Source: a phage
Sequence record: PZ809289.1
Strand: one strand, 5' to 3'
DNA length: 64,000 nucleotides
Positions 4,220 through 44,151 of this stretch are shown in pieces. Position numbers and translations under genes: made by a program. The notes under the pieces were generated by a model. It had not been told where the DNA came from, made no database searches, and was given only the letters and a program-made list of their open reading frames with translations. The stretch's first letter is position 1. Every line of letters begins with the position of its first letter.

Positions 4220-4711
4220 TCATTCCCACCAATCGATAGCGAACGTAGATTCGAAAGTTTCTACCTCGTTGTTGCTGTCCCAATCCATCTGGACTTCACC
4301 AACGTTAGTAGGCCATAAGCCGTAAATTGTAACTTCTTTGGTCACAGTCTTGCCGTCACGATGGAACTGGCGAACTACTGCTTGTTTCTTATATTCTGCA
4401 GGTGCTGCACCGGTAATTTCATTGGTCATACCGTGACAGAGATTCTGCCAATCGACAATTGCTTGACGGGTGTCATGTGCATCATCGTTATAAATGGTAA
4501 TGGTCCAATCATCAAACGTACGGTCACCGGCTACGTTAATTTTACGGTTCATGTAGCCAACCGGTACTTTTTCTACAATGCCTGCCGGCATAGGTGCTGC
4601 TTTACATTTAAAGCTAAAGTTTTTACCCAGAAATGGAATTTCCACTTCGAAAAGGTTAGGGCGTGCAAAGTCACCTGACTCAAACGCACGAGTGATATCT
4701 GTCAACTCCAT
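4220..4711 (-). CDS. 19: Tail tube protein gp19
   Basis: 163 aa, same length as T4 gp19; synteny. Confidence 0.9.
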   Translation of the reverse strand: MELTDITRAFESGDFARPNLFEVEIPFLGKNFSFKCKAAPMPAGIVEKVPVGYMNRKINVAGDRTFDDWTITIYNDDAHDTRQAIVDWQNLCHGMTNEITGAAPAEYKKQAVVRQFHRDGKTVTKEVTIYGLWPTNVGEVQMDWDSNNEVETFESTFAIDWWE

Positions 4712-33911: not shown

Positions 33912-34577
33912 ATGTTCCATTACACTTATAAAATAACAAACAAAATTAATAATAAAATCTATATAGGTGTCCATTCAACCGAAAATTTGAATGATGCATA
34001 TTTTGGTTCCGGTAAACTCTTGAAAAGGGCCCAGGCCAAATACGGTATAGAAAATTTCTCTAAAGAAATATTAGAGTTCTTTGACGATAAAATCTCTATG
34101 TTTGAGTCAGAAAAGAATATTGTGACTGAAGAGTTTTTAAAGCGCCCCGATGTTTATAATTTGAAATTAGGCGGTGAAGGTGGTTGGGACCATTTAAACA
34201 CCGAAGAATATTTAGATAAAAAGAAAGAAGCTTCCTTAAAAGGAGTTGCTGCTTTTAAAACCAGATTTGAGAACGACCCAGACCTTAAAGAAAAATATCG
34301 TAAAATGGGTTCAGAAAGGTTTAAACAACTTTGGGATAATCCTAAGTATAGAGAGAAATTTTCAAATACTAAATCTTTCTTGGGTAAGACCCATTCAGAT
34401 GAAACCAAAAATAAAATTAAAGAATCTCACGCCAGAAATAAACACCAACAAGGTGAAAATAATTCCGGATATGGAAAAATGTGGATTCATTCTTTAGAAG
34501 AAAAAGTTTCTAAACGTATTAACAAAACGGATATTATTCCTGAAGGTTGGAATAAAGGCCGTAAAATAAAATTTTGA
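33912..34577 (+). CDS. segB: GIY-YIG homing endonuclease, segB-like
   Basis: 221 aa; GIY-YIG motif (KIYIGVHS...YFGSG); between two tRNA genes as T4 segB. Confidence 0.7.
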   Translation: MFHYTYKITNKINNKIYIGVHSTENLNDAYFGSGKLLKRAQAKYGIENFSKEILEFFDDKISMFESEKNIVTEEFLKRPDVYNLKLGGEGGWDHLNTEEYLDKKKEASLKGVAAFKTRFENDPDLKEKYRKMGSERFKQLWDNPKYREKFSNTKSFLGKTHSDETKNKIKESHARNKHQQGENNSGYGKMWIHSLEEKVSKRINKTDIIPEGWNKGRKIKF

Positions 34578-35780: not shown

Positions 35781-36044
35781 ATGGATAATTATGGTGAAGT
35801 GTTTAATTTCTTTATGAAATGCGTTCCTGAAGAATTTGGTGCTACTGTTAACGATATTAAAGTTATCGGCCCTGAACACCCGGTGTATGAAACCTATGCA
35901 GTAATGGGTAATGAAGATGGACAGTGGTATACAATTAAAGTTGTGATTAATATGTTCTCAGCTGAAGGTTACGCCAAATCGTCTACCAAAGTTTACCATG
36001 GTAATGATTTTGATGCAGAAAATTATTTCAATAATATGAAATAA
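35781..36044 (+). CDS. Hypothetical protein
   Basis: ATG 35781 after SD GGAGAG; early promoter upstream. Confidence 0.5.
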   Translation: MDNYGEVFNFFMKCVPEEFGATVNDIKVIGPEHPVYETYAVMGNEDGQWYTIKVVINMFSAEGYAKSSTKVYHGNDFDAENYFNNMK

Positions 36045-36047
36045 AAC

Positions 36048-36076
36048 GTTTACATGGGCTCATGATTAAGATATTA
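36048..36076 (+). promoter_or_regulatory. Early promoter-like cassette
   Basis: GTTTAC, 17 bp, ATATTA; IR TGGGCTCAT/ATGAGCCCA. Confidence 0.4.
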
Positions 36077-36102
36077 TGAGCCCATAATTTGAGGAGAACA
36101 TA

Positions 36103-36501
36103 ATGAATATCGAAGATAAAGAAATGCAAGAGTTGTATAATTCATTAACACCTGAACAACAAAAATATGCCAAAGAACTAGAGAAAGCTCTTACTTTCAA
36201 CTTGGCAAAAACTGATTGGGCCGCTATGTATGAAGAAAAAACTAGATTAGAACTTGAAGCCGTCGAAAGAAATGAATGGATTGTCGAAACCAAGATTTCT
36301 GATGGTGGTTGCTCTGTTGAGGTGTCAGCTGTAGTTAAAGGTACTCATGGTGAAAAATCATGGGGCTGGCATAATGAAGCAAACAAACATATTGTTCTCT
36401 CAACGTCAAAAACTTATGGCCAAAGGGCTCCTGTATCCAAAGCTATTATTAAGCAAGCTCAATGGGAAGCCAATGAAATTTGCCTCGCAAAAATGAAATA
36501 A
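36103..36501 (+). CDS. Hypothetical protein
   Basis: 132 aa ORF; early promoter upstream. Confidence 0.5.
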   Translation: MNIEDKEMQELYNSLTPEQQKYAKELEKALTFNLAKTDWAAMYEEKTRLELEAVERNEWIVETKISDGGCSVEVSAVVKGTHGEKSWGWHNEANKHIVLSTSKTYGQRAPVSKAIIKQAQWEANEICLAKMK

Positions 36502-36504
36502 AAT

Positions 36505-36534
36505 GTTTACAAACCTCAGAGGACAGGGTATAAT
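36505..36534 (+). promoter_or_regulatory. Early promoter cassette
   Basis: GTTTAC, 18 bp, TATAAT; IR GAGGACA/TGTCCTC. Confidence 0.5.
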
Positions 36535-36577
36535 GTCCTCATGGATTACAAAACGTTAACCAACTGAAGGAAATACT

Positions 36578-37171
36578 ATGAACACTTTAAAGAAAATCGT
36601 TGAATTCATCCGTTCTAAACTGGGTACTGCAATGGCTCAGAACCTGTCAATCGAAGACCAGTATACTAAAGCTGCTTCTACCCTGATTGATAAAATCACT
36701 GAACTCCAGACTGCTCATGTTAAGTCTGTGAATGAAGAAAAACGTATTCGTGCGTTGGCTAATGAAAAAGACCAACTGGCTGCTTCTAAAGAACGTGAAA
36801 TTCGTAAACTGATTGCCGAAGGCGCTGATGTCCAGGTACATGCTAAACTTGGCCTCCTTTATCGTCGTACAGCTACTCAGCTTCGTAAGAAAGCTGATGA
36901 TTATATCGAAATGCGTAATGAAATTAAACTGAAGGTTAAGGAACTTGATGACTCTCGTCAGGAACTGGCTGTTAAGCTCGAGTACATCCGTGAAACTCGT
37001 AATATGGCTGCCCTTGGTATTGCTACTGCCGATGATGTTGTTGAAATCGCTGCACTGACTAAGATTGATATTGAAGACACCCTACTGCGTGTAGAAACGT
37101 TTAAAGGCCCGCAAGTTGGAATGGATACGACTTCTGCCGATATCGACGACTACATTAATTCACTTAAGTAA
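36578..37171 (+). CDS. Coiled-coil protein (weak PspA/IM30-like pattern)
   Basis: 197 aa, charged heptad-rich sequence; similarity to PspA is impressionistic. Confidence 0.45.
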
Positions 37172-37219
37172 TGTTATTGGGAGACTTCGGTCTCCCTATT
37201 TGGAGGAGAGGAGAATATT

Positions 37220-37756
37220 ATGAGTTTATATGATAACCTTATATCAAATATTGATTGGTTTAAAAATAGTGGTCTTTCCCATGAAACCAATGCAGTTCTT
37301 TATAGAATTCGCCAAGACCTAGGCTATTCAAACGATTTCTTAAGCAGAACATCTAGCCGTGGCGATACTACCAAATTACCTTTTATTTTTGCTTTAGCTG
37401 AAGACCTTTCTTTTGAAGATGCTTTGGAAATTATTGACGTAAATCTGGCTATTCAACGAGTGGAATTCGCTGGACTACGTTATTCAGTATATTCTTTAAA
37501 CGAGAGCGCTGATTGTGTGCTTCTTAATATGGCAGACGATGATTACCATTTAGTATGCTATGTAGCTTTAGAAAATGGTGATGTATTTGGAATGGTTGAC
37601 CGTCGCCCATCTTACTCTGATATTAAAAATTACGATAAAGATGAGCTTATTATTTTGGCTAATGAGTACACATTAGAAAGTCGTAAACAACAACGTAAGC
37701 TTAATCGTTTTATTGCTGAATGTCGCGAATACGCTAAAGAGGTTCAAAATGCATAA
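37220..37756 (+). CDS. Hypothetical protein
   Basis: 178 aa ORF. Confidence 0.5.
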   Translation: MSLYDNLISNIDWFKNSGLSHETNAVLYRIRQDLGYSNDFLSRTSSRGDTTKLPFIFALAEDLSFEDALEIIDVNLAIQRVEFAGLRYSVYSLNESADCVLLNMADDDYHLVCYVALENGDVFGMVDRRPSYSDIKNYDKDELIILANEYTLESRKQQRKLNRFIAECREYAKEVQNA

Positions 37757-38102
37757 GCCTAGTAAAACCGACCCTGGTTACGCATTAGCAGATTACGATA
37801 TCTCTATTTCATTATTCCTCGGCATTGCTACTAGTATGACTGCAGGGATAATTGGATTTCTTGTCGGTGGGATTATTAATGGTATGCCTCGCCATCCGTT
37901 TGAAGATATGAGCCTCGCGTGGATTTGGGTTCCGGCTTTAATAGGATTTTTTATCCCATGGGTCTTTGATATTGCCCAAACTAATAAAATAAACAAGCCA
38001 CGTAAAAAGAGATATGCTTTAGCTATGGCTAATTATAATGAGTATGTAAAACAAACTAAACGTAATGACCTTGAAACCTTTATTAAGGAATGTAAATCAT
38101 GA
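37749..38102 (+). CDS. Membrane protein with C-terminal ...FIKECKS tail
   Basis: ATG 37749; hydrophobic segments; shares C-terminal motif with 41973..42566. Confidence 0.5.
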   Translation: MHKPSKTDPGYALADYDISISLFLGIATSMTAGIIGFLVGGIINGMPRHPFEDMSLAWIWVPALIGFFIPWVFDIAQTNKINKPRKKRYALAMANYNEYVKQTKRNDLETFIKECKS

Positions 38103-38389
38103 ATAAAATTGAAATTGAAATCCCGGAACACAATGACGAGAAATCTGCAGAAAAGGCTATCTATGCTCTTCTGAATAAAGTGAATACCATCGAACATGAA
38201 TGTGAAGCTATTGCCGATAAGTATGGTATCCAATTCGGTACTGGTGATTATGGTTCAGGCCGTACATATTATCCTGTCGGTTATGAATGCTCCCAGTGGT
38301 TTAAAGATGAAATTGAAAACAACGGTGGTGAAGTTGAAAATGGCGTCGTTACAGTTGGTGCTTGGATCTCCTCTTCGGCAATGTGCTAA
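38099..38389 (+). CDS. Small protein, paralogue A of C-terminal-Cys family
   Basis: 96 aa; ends WISSSAMC. Confidence 0.55.
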   Translation: MNKIEIEIPEHNDEKSAEKAIYALLNKVNTIEHECEAIADKYGIQFGTGDYGSGRTYYPVGYECSQWFKDEIENNGGEVENGVVTVGAWISSSAMC

Positions 38390-38398
38390 GGAAATTTT

Positions 38399-38680
38399 AT
38401 GATGAATGATTACCATAAAAATAAAGAGCTGGCTGACGCAGTAAATGATATCCACAAAGCTATTCGTCGTGCTGAGGAAATTGCTGACAAATATGAGACT
38501 CATTTTAATATATACCCTGCTCGCGGTATGGGCGGTGACTATTATTCTCCTGGCGCCTTGAAAGCCGACCTTGCCCACTGGGAAGAATACGGTGAAGCTC
38601 AGTACGCTATTGTAAACCAACATGATTACACTACCAGCCTAGAAAATGGTGGTTGGGTGTCCTCTTCTTCTGAATGTTAA
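38399..38680 (+). CDS. Small protein, paralogue B of C-terminal-Cys family
   Basis: 93 aa; ends WVSSSSEC. Confidence 0.55.
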   Translation: MMNDYHKNKELADAVNDIHKAIRRAEEIADKYETHFNIYPARGMGGDYYSPGALKADLAHWEEYGEAQYAIVNQHDYTTSLENGGWVSSSSEC

Positions 38681-38689
38681 GGAAATAAA

Positions 38690-38902
38690 ATGACTATTGA
38701 TGAAATTGAAAACCAAATCCGTGAATTAGTACGTAAAGGCCAGTCTGTGGCTGACGAAACGGGTGAAGAGTTCCGTGTTTCTGGTCGTGGAGAATACATT
38801 TCTCCAAAGAACCCGGAATATGATGATTACGAATGGGTCCGTGATGACTACGGTATTCCGGAAGGTGAAGGTTTCTGGTTTACATCCTCTATGTCTTGCT
38901 AA
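38690..38902 (+). CDS. Small protein, paralogue C of C-terminal-Cys family
   Basis: 70 aa; ends WFTSSMSC. Confidence 0.55.
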   Translation: MTIDEIENQIRELVRKGQSVADETGEEFRVSGRGEYISPKNPEYDDYEWVRDDYGIPEGEGFWFTSSMSC

Positions 38903-38913
38903 GGTGATAAAAA

Positions 38914-39138
38914 ATGTCTGATATTAATGAATTAGAAAAAGCTGCACTTGAACTGGCTGCACTGTATAAGAAAGTAAAAGATATGGCTTCTGCTCAAAGT
39001 TTTGGTGTTGAGCTCGACGATTATGACGGTGAAGTTCGTCTCGAAGATTGGCTGAATAGCTCGTGTTATGGCGAAGAAGCTGGTCGCACCTTCGTTGCTC
39101 GGGCCGATGGTAAAATCTGGTATCCGAGCTCATGCTAA
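38914..39138 (+). CDS. Small protein, paralogue D of C-terminal-Cys family
   Basis: 74 aa; ends WYPSSC. Confidence 0.55.
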   Translation: MSDINELEKAALELAALYKKVKDMASAQSFGVELDDYDGEVRLEDWLNSSCYGEEAGRTFVARADGKIWYPSSC

Positions 39139-39359
39139 AATTAAAGAAAAGATACATTCGTAAAATAAATGGTCTTCGCGATTATGCCAAAGGTTGGCCG
39201 TTAAGTATTATTATGGCTGATAGACACCCGCGTTATAATACTGAGATGACTTATTACAAAAAGTACGATTCATATTGTCGGTCTAAAGCAGGTCGTTTAG
39301 ATGGTTCTTATGAAGACTATTTCGGTAAAAAACCTACTCGTATTTCGTTAGGAAAATAA
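39132..39359 (+). CDS. Small basic hypothetical protein
   Basis: 75 aa ORF. Confidence 0.4.
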   Translation: MLKLKKRYIRKINGLRDYAKGWPLSIIMADRHPRYNTEMTYYKKYDSYCRSKAGRLDGSYEDYFGKKPTRISLGK

Positions 39360-39368
39360 TTTAACCAC

Positions 39369-39719
39369 ATGGATGTGGTAGGAGGACTTATGCATAAAGA
39401 TTCAGTATTCAAATATCTTTTGAAAACAAATAAAGAATTCTATATGAATGGACAGGCCTTCTTGTTCGTTCGTGGTAAACGTGAGATGTTTTACAAATGC
39501 GACCTCTCAATGCACCATCATATGTATCACACCCGCGGTGAGCCTATACTGGGGTTCTCTGGTGACGAGACTAGACACATAGCTATGTACTACGACCATT
39601 TTAAGCTCAATGATTGTGGTGACAACGCTTTGGTCTGGAACCCGTCTTGGCGTCGTTGGGATACAGTAGACAATGATAAATTATTTTTAGAATATTGCAG
39701 AAGTGATGTACAACTCTAG
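39369..39719 (+). CDS. Hypothetical protein
   Basis: 116 aa ORF. Confidence 0.45.
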   Translation: MDVVGGLMHKDSVFKYLLKTNKEFYMNGQAFLFVRGKREMFYKCDLSMHHHMYHTRGEPILGFSGDETRHIAMYYDHFKLNDCGDNALVWNPSWRRWDTVDNDKLFLEYCRSDVQL

Positions 39720-39762
39720 AAAATCATGTTACTATTACCCTACACAAACATGAGGAGAACAT

Positions 39763-40002
39763 ATGTGGTATTACGCTCCGATGTCCGATAAGTCTAATGA
39801 ACCGGTACGCATTACTCGCGCCAAGTTTAAAAAGATTTATGGCTTCTCTTATAAGAAGTCTGATTACGGTGTTCGTTTTGAAGATGCCCACTGTATCAAT
39901 GACCCTTATGCTGAAGAAATCTCTAATGAGATAATTCCTATCATTAAGAATAATTCTGATGATATGTGGGAATTGCATAACGATTACGTCGCTGAAATTT
40001 AA
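39763..40002 (+). CDS. Hypothetical protein
   Basis: 79 aa ORF with SD. Confidence 0.45.
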   Translation: MWYYAPMSDKSNEPVRITRAKFKKIYGFSYKKSDYGVRFEDAHCINDPYAEEISNEIIPIIKNNSDDMWELHNDYVAEI

Positions 40003-40021
40003 GTTTACTGAGGAAAATATT

Positions 40022-40981
40022 ATGATGTTAGTTATTGGTTCTCGTGCACTGCACCACGCTGGTCTGATTGAAAGTAAGCATATCGAAAATTCTGATTGGG
40101 ATTTCATTGCCGACCAAGGCTCATGGAATCACTTTAAAGCACGTATGTTCGGCGCCCATGTACACGTTGACAATCCTGATGTCCAGGCTTTCAAATGTAT
40201 GCATAATGGTAAAGAAACCTATTTTGAAGCTTATATCGTTCGTGCTCTGACTAACGTACGAGAAATTACCGGTGAGCTTCAAGACGAAGATTTCACTTCA
40301 AGCTATCGTCTCCTGAAATATGCTGAAAATCATATTAAAAAGGACCGTCTTACTGGTTTCTATTGGGCCACCCCTGATATCTGTCTGGCTATCAAAACCT
40401 CTCATCGTTTCCTTAAGAATAATCCGTTCTTCTTGAAAACCATGTCCCACATCAAATACCTTCGTAATAAAGGTATCACCCTTAACGAAGAACTCCAGGA
40501 AATTATGTTGCAACGTCAAAAAGAAACGTTGAGCTATTCCCACCCTAAATTGGATGTAAACAAATCATCGTTCTTTAATGATACCATTTATACGCTGGAC
40601 CATGACTCTATTCATGAAGCAGTGGCATTGGCAGGGCGCCCTGCATATACCTTTTATATGAAGGAAGGTTCTGAAGTCATGACCTCTCGTGAGAAGTTCG
40701 AGGCTTTGCCTGAAGCTATTAAACTGGCTGGTGTATATGAAGAAACTTGTGTCCTGGCACTAGAACGTTCACAGGTTCCTAATGACTTCAATATTTCACC
40801 ATCATTAAGTTTTTATATGGCTCTTGAGAAAGTGTGTACCTCAATCACTTCAGGTTGGTTCCGCGAGTACGCCTGGGAAAACTACCAAGCTGTAGTGAAT
40901 ATGTATAAGACTTTAGGTGAAAACGACTACATTGAACGGTTTAAGCGTAACCAACATTTAATTCGTCCTTTCGAAAAATAA
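40022..40981 (+). CDS. Hypothetical protein with possible N-terminal nucleotidyltransferase-like motif
   Basis: ATG 40022 after SD GAGGAAAA; N-terminus VIGS...SDWDF loosely resembles GS...DxD; weak. Confidence 0.5.
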   Translation: MMLVIGSRALHHAGLIESKHIENSDWDFIADQGSWNHFKARMFGAHVHVDNPDVQAFKCMHNGKETYFEAYIVRALTNVREITGELQDEDFTSSYRLLKYAENHIKKDRLTGFYWATPDICLAIKTSHRFLKNNPFFLKTMSHIKYLRNKGITLNEELQEIMLQRQKETLSYSHPKLDVNKSSFFNDTIYTLDHDSIHEAVALAGRPAYTFYMKEGSEVMTSREKFEALPEAIKLAGVYEETCVLALERSQVPNDFNISPSLSFYMALEKVCTSITSGWFREYAWENYQAVVNMYKTLGENDYIERFKRNQHLIRPFEK

Positions 40982-40993
40982 TTGCACAAAACA

Positions 40994-41022
40994 GTGTACA
41001 AGGTCTATAGGTGTGATACTAT
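40994..41022 (+). promoter_or_regulatory. Early promoter cassette (-35 variant GTGTAC)
   Basis: Same body as 31833 and 32400. Confidence 0.5.
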
Positions 41023-41059
41023 AGACCTATCAAAACAACAGAGTGAAATGGAGAATAAA

Positions 41060-41272
41060 ATGAAACTTTCTAACCAAGCAATCAACATGTTAAACGAAGT
41101 TCGTGCAGCTGGTGCTAAATGCCTGATGGTTAACACTCGTGACGGTGACCTTCGTCAAGCATTTGGTGAATTGAAATCTGCTGACCTGGTTAAATGTTCA
41201 GTTGGTATTGGTAACGCACTTCGTGTATCCTTATCTCCTAAAGGTAAAATGTACTTTTTCAACAAAAAGTAA
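41060..41272 (+). CDS. Small hypothetical protein
   Basis: ATG 41060 after conserved leader GGAGAATAAAATG; early promoter upstream. Confidence 0.45.
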   Translation: MKLSNQAINMLNEVRAAGAKCLMVNTRDGDLRQAFGELKSADLVKCSVGIGNALRVSLSPKGKMYFFNKK

Positions 41273-41286
41273 GTGAGGAAAATATT

Positions 41287-41973
41287 ATGAACGGTCCGAA
41301 AACTTTTAATTCTAAAGCTCGTGCAGTAGGTGGTTTTGCAGGTCATATTTCTAATGATGATATTAAAAACGAGCCTATGTTCTTTAACTGTGATTTGAAT
41401 TTTGCTGCACAAAATGGTGGTCCTATTACTCGTAGCTTTATTACTAATCTCCCTGATGAGTGGAAAGCCGTTGAATGCGTATTTGATTCCCGTGTACACA
41501 TGTTAATGCCCGGCTGGTACCCTGCAATTCCAGGCTTCCACCATGATGATGTACCCCGTCCGGATATTCCGGTTGGTCAACACTTTATTACCGCAGGGCA
41601 ACCTGATTATGATAATCCTCGATACCATTCTGAACATATTCTTGGTCTTGTTAACGCTGATGTGTGTCCTACTCATTTTGCAACCGGAACTGCCCAGTTC
41701 AGTCAGATTCCTGAAGGCGAACTTATCTATCGCCAGTGGCATAAAGAAGTTCTGGAAAAAATTGAGTCTAATGAATTAACTAAGTGGGATGCTCCTGACC
41801 GCACGTTGCTCCAGTTTGATTGGCAGACATGGCATACAGGTTCTCGTGCAGTAAGTAACGGTTGGCGCTGGTTTGGTCGTGTGTCTCGTAATACAGACCG
41901 TGTTAAAAAGATTACAAATGAAATCCGCGTTAATGCTCAAGTATATCTGGAATTTCCTATGGAGGGCTGGTAA
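41287..41973 (+). CDS. Hypothetical protein
   Basis: 228 aa ORF. Confidence 0.5.
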   Translation: MNGPKTFNSKARAVGGFAGHISNDDIKNEPMFFNCDLNFAAQNGGPITRSFITNLPDEWKAVECVFDSRVHMLMPGWYPAIPGFHHDDVPRPDIPVGQHFITAGQPDYDNPRYHSEHILGLVNADVCPTHFATGTAQFSQIPEGELIYRQWHKEVLEKIESNELTKWDAPDRTLLQFDWQTWHTGSRAVSNGWRWFGRVSRNTDRVKKITNEIRVNAQVYLEFPMEGW

Positions 41974-42566
41974 TGGCCCTTTATGAACCTGGATGTATGG
42001 GTATTGATACAAACTTCATCCGTCGGTCGGAAAATGCCGGAATTATTATCCCAAGTGGTGAACATATGATTATTAAAAAGTCCTGGCGAAATATCGATGA
42101 CGGTGATGAAGGAATTTCAGCCAGTACAATAGATTGGTCAGGTTGTACTGCCGAAATGAAACAGCTTTTAATTGAGGAGTTCAGAATGGGTTATATCGTA
42201 AATGGTTGGCAACCGGTAAAGAAAATCACCCGCACTGACGATAAGTATATTTGTCTCCAAGATGGAAAGGCTAAGCTCATTGATACTGAATGGCTTACGT
42301 TCGGACGATATGTTGTAGCGTATTTTATTACTTTACTTCCAATGATAGTGTTGAGTTCATTTTTAATCGACGCCAATTGGAATGATGCGCTAGAACGAAC
42401 TATTATTGGTGCGGGATTAATGAACCTTTTCACCGCTGGAGCTGCTTTAAGTATTTGGTGCTTGGCTATTGAAATGCCATGGCGTTTACGTCGTCAACAA
42501 CGTCTTTACGACGAAGGTAAAAACAAACATAATTTAAATGAGTTTATTAAGGAATGCCGTAAATGA
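41973..42566 (+). CDS. Membrane protein with C-terminal ...FIKECRK tail
   Basis: 197 aa; C-terminal TM segments and same tail motif as 37749..38102. Confidence 0.5.
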   Translation: MALYEPGCMGIDTNFIRRSENAGIIIPSGEHMIIKKSWRNIDDGDEGISASTIDWSGCTAEMKQLLIEEFRMGYIVNGWQPVKKITRTDDKYICLQDGKAKLIDTEWLTFGRYVVAYFITLLPMIVLSSFLIDANWNDALERTIIGAGLMNLFTAGAALSIWCLAIEMPWRLRRQQRLYDEGKNKHNLNEFIKECRK

Positions 42567-42799
42567 GTATTGCAATTTATATTAAATCTGAGTCATGTGA
42601 TTCTTATCTGTATTCCTATGATACCGGAACGTCAGAAGAGAAAATCAAAGAAGATTTAGAAAGCGACTTGGGTATGTTCTGTCCTATTGGTGACTATATG
42701 CTTCAAGTGTCTGATAGTGAAAGTCCATCATCAGAAAATAGACTTCAAATTATTATGCAAGATATTTTTAAACAATCATGGGAACGAGACGATGAGTAA
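42563..42799 (+). CDS. Small acidic hypothetical protein
   Basis: 78 aa ORF; start overlaps upstream stop. Confidence 0.45.
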   Translation: MSIAIYIKSESCDSYLYSYDTGTSEEKIKEDLESDLGMFCPIGDYMLQVSDSESPSSENRLQIIMQDIFKQSWERDDE

Positions 42800-43241
42800 G
42801 AAAGCTAAGGAATTATCGGCAGGTATTTTGTTCATGACCGTTGATAAAGAACTGGTCATGGGTCGTGTAACAGGCTCTCGTAATCCAGAGAACATGCGTC
42901 ATAAATGGGACATTCCTAAAGGCCATGTCGAACCAGGCGAAGAGCCTATTCAAGCGGCAATGCGCGAAACCGAAGAAGAGATTGGATTCACAGCATACGA
43001 TCCTGCATTCCTGAAAGACCTAGGTGAGTTCAAATATTCAAGCAATAAGAATCTACATCTGTTCTTATATACGGTGCCTGTGGAACACGAGCAGTTCAAG
43101 GATTGCAAATGTACGGCTTACCATACGTTCCCTGATGGTCGTACTATTCCTGAATTCGATGCTTTTGCCTTGATTAAACGTCCGCAATGGGAATATGTCA
43201 TGGGCCCGTCGATGTTTAAGGTTTTAGATTCGCTCTTTTGA
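42792..43241 (+). CDS. nudE: Nudix hydrolase NudE (e.1-like)
   Basis: Nudix box GHVEPGEEPIQAAMRETEEEIG; immediately upstream of e as in T4; start ATG 42792. Confidence 0.8.
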   Translation: MSKKAKELSAGILFMTVDKELVMGRVTGSRNPENMRHKWDIPKGHVEPGEEPIQAAMRETEEEIGFTAYDPAFLKDLGEFKYSSNKNLHLFLYTVPVEHEQFKDCKCTAYHTFPDGRTIPEFDAFALIKRPQWEYVMGPSMFKVLDSLF

Positions 43242-43269
43242 TATAAATACCTCCTATACTCAGGAGGTA
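43242..43269 (+). promoter_or_regulatory. Late promoter TATAAATA plus SD-sequestering hairpin upstream of e
   Basis: tataaata followed by inverted repeat CCTCCT...AGGAGG containing the SD. Confidence 0.65.
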
Positions 43270-43271
43270 TT

Positions 43272-43766
43272 ATGGATATTTTTGATATGTTACGCCTTGA
43301 TGAAGGCTGTAAATTAGACTTATATAAGGATACTGAGGGATACTATACTATTGGTATTGGCCAATTGATTACTAAGAATCCTTCTAAAGATGTTGCTCGG
43401 GCTGAACTTGATAAGCTTATGGGCCGGGTTTGTAACGGACGTATTACTATGGCTGAAGCCGAACAACTTTTTAACAGGTCGGTTGAAAATGCTCGTAGAG
43501 CTATTCTGCGTAATCCTAAATTGAAACCTGTTTATGATGTACTGGACGAAGTTCGTCGTTGTGCTTTAATTAACATGGTATTCCAAATGGGTGAAGCAGG
43601 TGTAGCTGGGTTCACTAACTCTTTACGTATGCTCCAACAGAAACGTTGGAATGATGCGGCAGTTAACCTGGCTCAATCCCGTTGGTATAAACAAACCCCT
43701 AATCGTGCTAAGCGCGTGATTTCTACATTTAAAACAGGTACTTGGAAAGCATATGAAAACTTATAA
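43272..43766 (+). CDS. e: Endolysin (T4 lysozyme E)
   Basis: 164 aa; [32 protein letters not shown]...[22 protein letters not shown] matches T4 lysozyme. Confidence 0.95.
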
Positions 43767-44151
43767 TGAATTTATCGCAGAGAATGTAATTCCTGCATCT
43801 AAAGAACTTTTGGCAATGTTCGAATCTGAAGAGTTCACTGAAGAACTGAATGAGAATCTGACCCAGGCCACTCCTCAGGTTATTCGCGTTCGTAATGCCC
43901 TTCAGACAGGCATGCAGGCTCGCGTCTCTAAGACTATGAAGCTGGCCTTCACCACTTCTAAAAATGAAGACTACGGTGATGGTATTGCAATGAACACTGG
44001 ACAGTATTATGTTGAGTGGAATGGCGAAACCGGTACTGCTAAGATTCGCCAAACCAGAGCAGCGGGTGGTAAAATGTTGGACATTAAACTGAACGTTAAA
44101 GAGAAAGACGTCGCGGCTTTGTTCAAGAATTGGATGAAGACCTATAAATAA
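43753..44151 (+). CDS. Internal-protein-like, leader [10 protein letters not shown]
   Basis: CTS-like N-terminus; adjacent to e where T4 carries ipIII/ipII. Confidence 0.6.
44143..44150 (+). promoter_or_regulatory. Late promoter TATAAATA upstream of ipIII-like gene
   Basis: tataaata adjacent to early promoter. Confidence 0.45.

Follow-up and report, generated by a model that had tools for sequence, protein, structure and literature searches.

A conserved C-terminal tail on e.3, e.2 and neighbouring proteins in the e gene cluster of a Dhakavirus and other T-even phages

What do two small phage proteins, encoded at opposite ends of a block of accessory genes, have in common when little more than their last residues look alike? 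The question is raised by a 64,000-nucleotide (nt) stretch of phage DNA (sequence record PZ809289.1; hereafter the window), in which two open reading frames (ORFs), here called ORF A and ORF B, each encode a pair of hydrophobic helices and end in nearly the same peptide (Table 1). An earlier note on this DNA read them as envelope-associated factors with a shared membrane-anchoring module on different N-terminal domains, brought about by domain shuffling. We find instead that ORF A and ORF B are the orthologues of e.3 and e.2 of phages T4 and T6, that the part they share is a short C-terminal tail, that the same tail ends soluble proteins of the same gene cluster, and that it is conserved as a peptide. 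Bases 37200-43800 of the window are 93-98% identical to Dhakavirus genomes (vB_EcoM-E33, WG01, QL01, MX01 and Bp7); judged from sequence, the source is a Dhakavirus, a T-even phage, and the ORFs, by their homologies, are ordinary members of known, uncharacterised T-even families. The cluster-wide, peptide-selected C-terminal signature, as far as we have found in the literature searched, has not been described.

ORF A matches its PHROG family from end to end, and tblastn gives 47% identity to e.3 of phage VR7 and, over the full length, about 23% identity to e.3 of T6 (E=5e-5). It resembles e.3 of T4 and T6 in sequence, length, hairpin, tail and place in the gene chain running from e.6 to nudE and e, where, e.4 being absent from the window, it follows directly on a soluble ORF that takes the e.5 position. 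Membrane segments were called by Kyte-Doolittle hydropathy in 19-residue windows, which gives ORF A two transmembrane-like segments. The AlphaFold2 model (predicted local distance difference test, pLDDT, 82) has helices at residues 18-44 and 57-116, forming a hairpin whose second helix runs unbroken through a basic patch (11 K/R in the 44 residues of the C-terminal flank) to the tail; the C-terminus reads NDLETFIKECKS. An e.3 profile run against 1.84 billion representative proteins returned eight matches (E up to 0.001), seven of which were inspected: all seven were e.3-type phage proteins or fragments, with no relatives outside the e.3 family among them, and each full-length one ended in the tail. 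Moreover, a Foldseek search of the ORF A model against BFVD retrieved only its own family and weak matches to uncharacterised hairpin proteins of other T4-like phages.

ORF B, upstream of nudE and e, is likewise the orthologue of T4 and T6 e.2, to which it is alike in sequence (about 45% identity to T6 e.2), hairpin, tail and position in the chain, and from which it differs by a 31-residue N-terminal extension found only in Dhaka- and Gaprivervirus-type phages; homology to the PHROG family and to T6 starts at Met32 (42066). The Bp7 record annotates the counterpart of ORF B as e.2, and its relatives carry Pfam PF26896 (e.2), which, like PF26873 (e.4), is a precomputed label. The protein consists of a soluble N-terminal domain, a two-helix hairpin, a basic flank (9 K/R per 31 residues) and the tail, its C-terminus being HNLNEFIKECRK, and its AlphaFold2 model (pLDDT 58) has helices at residues 105-131 and 139-196, a hairpin whose second helix again reaches the tail. 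This fits the e.2 pattern of an N-terminal W-x-N-[IL]-D-D...D-W-x-x-C, a two-helix hairpin and a C-terminal F-I-x-E-C-R. In an alignment of e.2 proteins (A1; 26-49% identity), 19 columns are invariant, including W7, D11, D12, G16, D23, W24, C27, F160, I161, C164 and R165, and four of the 19 are the F, I, C and R of the tail. In the T4 reference (NC_000866, 67490-67960), e.2 is annotated as 102 aa: relative to T6, a 1-nt deletion is followed about 75 nt on by a 1-nt insertion, a stop codon falls in the short out-of-frame stretch between them, and the tail, NNFITECRKLK, is back in frame behind the two frameshifts, which may reflect either a genuine lesion or a sequencing mistake of long standing. 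e.3, e.2 and the paralogue e.4 of T4 and T6 are annotated as 'conserved hypothetical predicted membrane proteins'; from hydropathy, e.3 and e.2 are very probably inner-membrane proteins, in keeping with the envelope association proposed for them.

Translation and hydropathy bear out much of what had first been noticed: in both ORFs a pair of hydrophobic helices is followed by a basic flank and the common tail, and the stop codon of each overlaps the start of the next gene as ATGA (38099-38102 and 42563-42566). The shared anchoring module, however, dissolves on alignment. BLASTP aligns A and B over 18 residues only (7 identities, E=0.006), and hhalign of the e.2 profile against an e.3/e.4 profile (probability 86.8%, E=4e-6) covers 18 tail columns only, while the membrane hairpins do not align. 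The two ORFs do flank an accessory block in the window, but this is no design feature. In T6, e.5, e.4, e.3, e.2, nudE and e are contiguous and overlapping, and the order in T4 is identical; because e.3 and e.2 are direct neighbours there, the 3.9-kb block of the window is an indel between neighbours.

Nor is the tail limited to these two ORFs. Its signature can be written as hydrophobic(-3)-x-x-F(0)-[IVL](+1)-x-x-C(+4)-[RK](+5). In all six frames of the window, F[IVL]xxC[RK] has five matches, four of them at the C-termini of plus-strand genes within 5.3 kb and the fifth near the start of an unrelated plus-strand ORF (4361-4678). Among the 141 window ORFs of at least 60 aa, four have the motif within their last 22 residues, compared with a mean of 0.08, and never more than two, in 1000 residue shuffles, so the common tail is not a chance likeness. 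The two additional carriers have no hydrophobic segment by Kyte-Doolittle. One is the 178-aa ORF in the e.5 position, which ends in FIAECREYAKEVQNA (tail LNRFIAECREYAKEVQNA, motif at 37709-37726) and has no BLASTP similarity to T4-type e.5 beyond the tail and no T4 tblastn match. The other is a 116-aa ORF of the accessory block with the C-terminus KLFLEYCRSDVQL (tail LFLEYCRSDVQL, motif at 39684-39701), which retains the motif though the next gene starts 44 nt past its stop; its position-equivalents end in SFIQMCRGNQNVS in Kanagawavirus, LFIMQCRMRKTS in Citrobacter phage Ursula and LFIAKCRAK in Jiaodavirus. Since the tail also ends soluble proteins that lack a hydrophobic segment, it cannot be an anchoring device.

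We defined a cluster-wide set by a relaxed pattern, hydrophobic(-3)-x-x-[FW]-[IVL]-x-x-[C/V/I/S/M]-[RK], lying no more than about 22 residues from the C-terminus of a gene in the e.6-to-nudE chain. The ORF A and ORF B tails, L-E-T-F-I-K-E-C-K and L-N-E-F-I-K-E-C-R, fit this set, as do those of the 178-aa and 116-aa window ORFs and the tails of T6 e.5 (EKFVKECREY...), e.4 (MKFVKESRC...), e.3 (KEFVSDCRKIK) and e.2 (NNFITECRKLK). Five ORFs carry the tail in Mosigvirus HX01, four in Kanagawavirus, three to four in Gaprivervirus, and five each in Jiaodavirus KpV477 and Citrobacter phage Ursula, where F-to-W and C-to-M variants are included; no carriers were found upstream of nudE in a Slopekvirus or in the Pseudotevenvirus RB16. 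Over the full T4 genome (168.9 kb), the strict motif occurs near a C-terminus only in e.3 and e.5, with one internal chance match in 30.3; T4 e.4 has S-R-C at the motif, the e.2 tail is intact behind its frameshifts, and no T4 ORF outside the e cluster has the tail near its C-terminus. The e.6 C-terminus, (E/D)-Y-[IL]-x-S-L-K (EYINSLK, EYLASLK or EYLESLK), is kept in all genera sampled, and this ending (aromatic-I-x-x-L-K) suggests a degenerate tail and possible membership of the set.

The bodies that carry the tail are far more varied. With tails removed, BLASTP among T4-type e.5, the Dhakavirus e.5-position protein, a Kanagawavirus 234-aa protein, e.4, e.3, the 116/92-aa family, an HX01 101-aa protein and e.2 gave only marginal matches in hydrophobic segments (E 0.007-0.8) and no significant match between families, which upholds the view that the N-terminal parts are unrelated. 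The e.3 and e.4 families are the exception: they align end to end and have a common N-terminal M-x-K-P-(S/T)-L, and are therefore probably paralogues. Two natural variants of these families were also seen, a 60-aa ORF of Escherichia phage OLB35 (P0039) that joins the start and middle of e.3 to the end of e.4, and a 69-aa ORF (P0041) that is e.4 minus its hydrophobic region; both keep the tail, and the chimera and the deletion therefore point to recombination and deletion among paralogues. A tail-only profile run against 5.8 billion proteins returned six matches, all of them fragments or chimeras of e.2, e.3 and e.4, through a word-index candidate step that is too restrictive for so short a motif.

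Codon usage separates conservation of the peptide from conservation of the DNA. Across 87 distinct tails, F is encoded by TTT (76) or TTC (11), C by TGT and TGC (36 each), and R by AGA (25), CGT (24), CGA (10), AGG (10), CGC (8) and CGG (1), and the I/V/L position uses seven different codons; with such free synonymous variation at F, I/V, C and R, it is the peptide that is under selection. The middle x-x positions behave differently. They are mostly K-E, encoded by AAG GAA, which is the T4-type Shine-Dalgarno (SD) sequence of the overlapping downstream gene in 37 of the 87 tails; in the others it is weak, occupies the R/+1 codons or a site further downstream, or no downstream start was found within 80 nt. 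The downstream SD accounts at most for the middle K-E pair of the tail. Such dual coding explains the K-E preference and also the 14-nt exact direct repeat TTTATTAAGGAATG common to A and B (plus strand, 38079-38092 and 42543-42556), which encodes F-I-K-E and two nucleotides of the C codon in both tails and whose AAGGAA is also the SD of the overlapping downstream gene. The earlier note had seen that a likeness of a few residues arising from a shared nucleotide junction would undo its case. The similarity is indeed short and includes an exact repeat, but the codons show that the peptide, not the DNA, is conserved. Among 62 non-identical tails, position -3 is hydrophobic in 84%, though it was not part of the search pattern, and position +4 is C in 76% and otherwise V, S, I or M. 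In a two-turn helix, positions -3, 0, +1 and +4 lie on the same face, and a basic residue follows. The residues tolerated at +4 rule out a metal-binding or catalytic role for the Cys, and a C-terminal degron read from the free carboxylate is ruled out by the distance of the motif from the end, which ranges from 0 to 15 residues.

How, then, did unrelated proteins come to end alike? One answer is that the tail is a by-product of nucleotide constraint, the translation-initiation region of an overlapping downstream gene giving the same peptide wherever it is read in the same frame. Nearly all tail-bearing genes overlap or abut the next gene, the x-x codons of those 37 tails hold AAGGAA, GAGGAA, AAGGAG or AAAGGA 5-10 nt before the next ATG, and A and B have their exact repeat. 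Yet the codons at F, I/V, C and R span all synonyms, both Arg families included; FVSDCR, FITECR, FIAECR, FVDQCR and FLEYCR keep the peptide with the SD elsewhere or with no overlapping gene; the motif never leaves the reading frame of the upstream gene; and another canonical site, TGAGGAAAATATTATGA, serves the genes that follow an intergenic gap. This explanation is largely refuted for F, I, C and R, and for the tail as a whole we consider it quite improbable. The tail might otherwise be a neutral relic of serial tandem duplication from one ancestral gene, without a shared function, an account that suits the contiguous, co-oriented genes, the end-to-end alignment of e.3 and e.4 with their common N-terminus, and the natural chimeras and internal deletion variants. 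A relic should erode no more slowly than the bodies, however, and the bodies have diverged beyond detection, whereas F, I/V, C and R, for all the free synonymous change in their codons, are near-invariant over seven genus-level lineages; it is also hard to derive membrane hairpins and soluble proteins of 92-234 aa from a single ancestor, and we judge this account rather improbable. Domain shuffling, the route that the earlier note had suggested, is possible, but tandem duplication with fast divergence of the bodies fits equally well. Finally, the tail-coding DNA could serve as a recombination linker for cassette swaps by mini-homology. Promoter-early stem-loop cassettes have reportedly been proposed to mediate modular shuffling in T4-type genomes, and recombination via the conserved leader of internal-protein genes has likewise been proposed. 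The cassettes resemble the tail as short conserved gene-boundary elements in plastic T4-type regions with accessory-gene turnover, and the e cluster is an indel hot spot in which the block between e.3 and e.2 is present or absent, the 14-nt direct repeat flanks that block, and chimeric e.3/e.4 ORFs exist. But the cassettes are non-coding intergenic DNA, whereas the tail is protein-coding and in frame, and what is conserved is its peptide, with synonymous changes occurring freely. A DNA linker needs neither a fixed reading frame nor amino-acid conservation, and tails of different families within a genome share no more than 14 nt of identical DNA, in line with codon bias and SD; we consider a linker very improbable.

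A different lead comes from the capsid-targeting sequence (CTS) of the internal proteins IPI, IPII and IPIII and their variable relatives, of which the tail could be a C-terminal version that binds the prohead core and, where x(+3) is Glu, is cleavable by gp21 after I-x-E. Both systems combine a constant terminal peptide with hypervariable bodies in the same hyperplastic neighbourhood, internal-protein genes flanking the e cluster. The CTS at these loci, M-K-T-[YF]-x-E-F-[IL]-x-E (26 variants), aligns by hhalign in register with the tail (TYqEFIxE against xLxxFIkEC, E=9e-4), both reading hydrophobic-x-x-F-[IL]-x-E. Within the CTS, targeting depends on residues 4 and 7 and gp21 processing on residues 8 and 10 (PMC9026906); these four correspond to tail positions -3, 0, +1 and +3, and C-terminal processing by gp21 has been reported for Alt and for gp21 itself (PMC9026906). 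The hhalign probability is only 23%, however, and the common pattern is low in information content. The CTS stands at the N-terminus, begins with M-K-T, invariably has Glu where it is cleaved and functions late, when the prohead is assembled, whereas the tail is C-terminal, lacks M-K-T and belongs to genes that look early, with no late-promoter motif inside the cluster; its Glu at +3 is present in 53% of the 62 tails and absent from Kanagawa-, Jiaoda- and Ursula-type tails. Furthermore, C(+4)-R(+5), the best conserved part of the tail, has no CTS counterpart, and membrane hairpin proteins cannot be packaged. To our knowledge, the e.x proteins are not among the reported virion proteins, which also counts against this reading. 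Homology between CTS and tail is not established, and a C-terminal CTS of this kind seems highly improbable. More broadly, the tail might be an undescribed Tevenvirinae C-terminal address tag, a two-turn amphipathic helix (L-x-x-F-I-x-E-C-R) that sends fast-evolving early proteins, whether soluble or in the membrane, to one partner, and in its boldest form functionally related to the CTS, a tentative proposal that we think unlikely on balance. In that form, the phage would package and inject a second class of proteins, the soluble e-cluster proteins with their C-terminal tag, and the membrane hairpins would act as cleavable tethers or as decoys where the prohead is bound to the membrane. IPI* counters the host GmrSD restriction system, and because the design of the e cluster resembles that of the internal proteins, a conflict-driven role is worth considering. 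Outside the internal-protein loci, T4 gp61.1 (54 aa; NC_000866, ORF start 19130, minus strand) begins with the CTS-like MKTFKEFIKEDM.

We lean towards the explanation, which we hold to be somewhat better than evenly balanced, that the tail is a cluster-wide, C-terminal amphipathic docking or assembly helix on the fast-evolving bodies of e.3, e.2 and their neighbours. It is the most constrained part of its proteins, sits on soluble and membrane proteins alike, is restricted to one early cluster and is exposed in the models, in both of which it is the free end of a long helix and has no partner within its own chain; it is these features together that suggest docking. On this explanation, e.3 and e.2 would be small inner-membrane hairpins with both ends in the cytoplasm, a topology taken from the positive-inside rule, and the second transmembrane helix would extend as a basic cytoplasmic helix of 30-45 residues ending in the two-turn amphipathic signature. 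The signature marks the translationally chained early cluster of Tevenvirinae from e.6/e.5 to e.2 as a whole, with four to six neighbouring genes per genome carrying it, and it would bring these fast-evolving early proteins to one putative partner, or to one another, on the cytoplasmic side of the inner membrane. Its middle residues, often K-E (AAG GAA), double as the ribosome-binding site of the next gene.

Several points weigh against a docking helix. The docking function and the common partner are predictions from sequence and models; the topology has the positive-inside rule only behind it; and the confidence of the ORF B model is low, including in the N-terminal domain. The motif is not uniform, Cys being replaced by V, I, S or M in e.4-type tails and some others, and most tails lie near the next start codon, so that conservation of K-E/AAGGAA is certainly in part nucleotide-driven. 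Descent by tandem duplication could explain the tail without a shared partner. Pfam-A, NCBIfam and PDB sequence searches gave no functional hint for ORF A, ORF B or the e.5-position, 116-aa, 319-aa and 228-aa ORFs, and neither the tail nor a function for e.2-e.5 turned up in the literature searched.

The surrounding locus, summarized in Table 1, runs on the plus strand from e.6 through the 178-aa ORF, ORF A, the accessory ORFs, ORF B and the 78-aa ORF to nudE, e (lysozyme) and an internal-protein-like ORF. The extra ORF between e.2 and nudE also occurs in Mosigvirus and Gaprivervirus. The early-promoter-like site, called from a consensus scan only, is likely the start of the e.6-to-e transcription unit. 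The late-promoter motif TATAAATA is absent from the plus strand between 35077 and 43241, and one copy stands at 43242, upstream of e. Rfam gave no match within 36000-44000. A 221-aa ORF (33912-34577) has a C-terminus like that of T4-type SegB GIY-YIG homing endonucleases (…GWNKGRKIKF) and, like segB in T4, precedes the e cluster, and a 132-aa ORF (43753-44151) overlaps the end of the lysozyme gene and has the CTS of internal proteins as its N-terminus.

Table 1. Features of the e cluster and the accessory block (positions in the window)
Feature	Position	Strand	Remarks
Early-promoter-like site	36506-36534	+	TTTACA, 17-nt spacer, TATAAT; 11/12 matches; just upstream of e.6
e.6 homologue	36578-37171	+	first gene of chain
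178-aa soluble ORF, e.5 position	37220-37756	+	phrog_8788; overlaps ORF A start by 8 nt
ORF A, orthologue of T4 e.3	37749-38102	+	117 aa; phrog_2330, E=1e-43 over aa 1-117
ORF A transmembrane-like segments	37812-37868, 37911-37967	+	aa 22-40 and 55-73; 14-residue loop (Kyte-Doolittle)
ORF A tail motif FIKECK	38079-38096	+	
Accessory block	38099-41972	+	11 ORFs, 3.9 kb; absent from T4 and T6
Four tandem paralogues	38099-39138	+	96, 93, 70 and 74 aa; 21-31% identity; phrog_899
116-aa soluble ORF in accessory block	39369-39719	+	no overlapping downstream gene
319-aa ORF	40022-40981	+	DUF7277 (aa 2-101, E=2e-27), DUF7275 (aa 120-305, E=2e-77)
228-aa protein	41287-41973	+	phrog_1843; contains PGFHHDDVP
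ORF B, orthologue of T4/T6 e.2	41973-42566	+	197 aa; phrog_2203, E=1.7e-69 over aa 32-197
ORF B hydrophobic segments	~42312-42368, ~42414-42470	+	~aa 114-132 and 148-166; 15-residue acidic loop
ORF B tail motif FIKECR	42543-42560	+	
78-aa acidic ORF	42563-42799	+	phrog_2900; ATGA overlap with ORF B stop; precedes nudE

The accessory block also occurs in Gapriver-, Mosig- and Kanagawavirus, as well as in Citrobacter phage Ursula, and none of its ORFs has a T4 tblastn match. The T4 arrangement did not arise from it by recombination between the 14-nt repeats, an event that would delete e.2. The four paralogues at its start vary in copy number among VR7, HX01, IME523 and Ursula, and all end in W-x-(S/T/P)-S-S-x-x-C with Cys as the last residue, a second conserved C-terminal ending in the cluster. 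The 319-aa ORF is conserved in the same four phages; the nucleotidyltransferase once suggested for it finds no backing, Pfam giving DUF7277 and DUF7275 only, with no PDB sequence match below E=0.03, no NCBIfam match and no T4 homologue. An in-frame ATG lies upstream of it at 39959, and homologues and a canonical initiation region favour the start at 40022. The Ursula counterpart of the 228-aa protein is annotated as a 2OG-Fe(II) oxygenase (phrog_81), for which no Pfam, NCBIfam or PDB sequence match to the 228-aa protein was found in support. The 17-nt initiation region TGAGGAAAATATTATGA is identical before these two ORFs (40009-40025 and 41274-41290), and variants of it with 82-88% identity precede e.6 (36565-36581) and the 178-aa ORF (37207-37223).

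Small early inner-membrane proteins of T4 such as Imm, Sp, rI and Ac are non-essential in the laboratory. They have no sequence or motif similarity to e.2, e.3 or e.4, and none carries the tail in the whole-T4 scan. By analogy only, as small early phage membrane proteins, their exclusion, lysis-timing and envelope or defence roles are of the kind that e.2, e.3 and e.4 could have. If the tail is inert, the bracketing of the accessory block is a mere indel between neighbouring paralogues, and the block has no special boundary elements. Roughly half of the T4 genes are without an assigned function, and the stretch from e.2 to e.8 is a blank area of the best-studied phage. A common terminal tag would give this area an experimental handle, in that one peptide could be used as bait for the partner of four to six orphan proteins.

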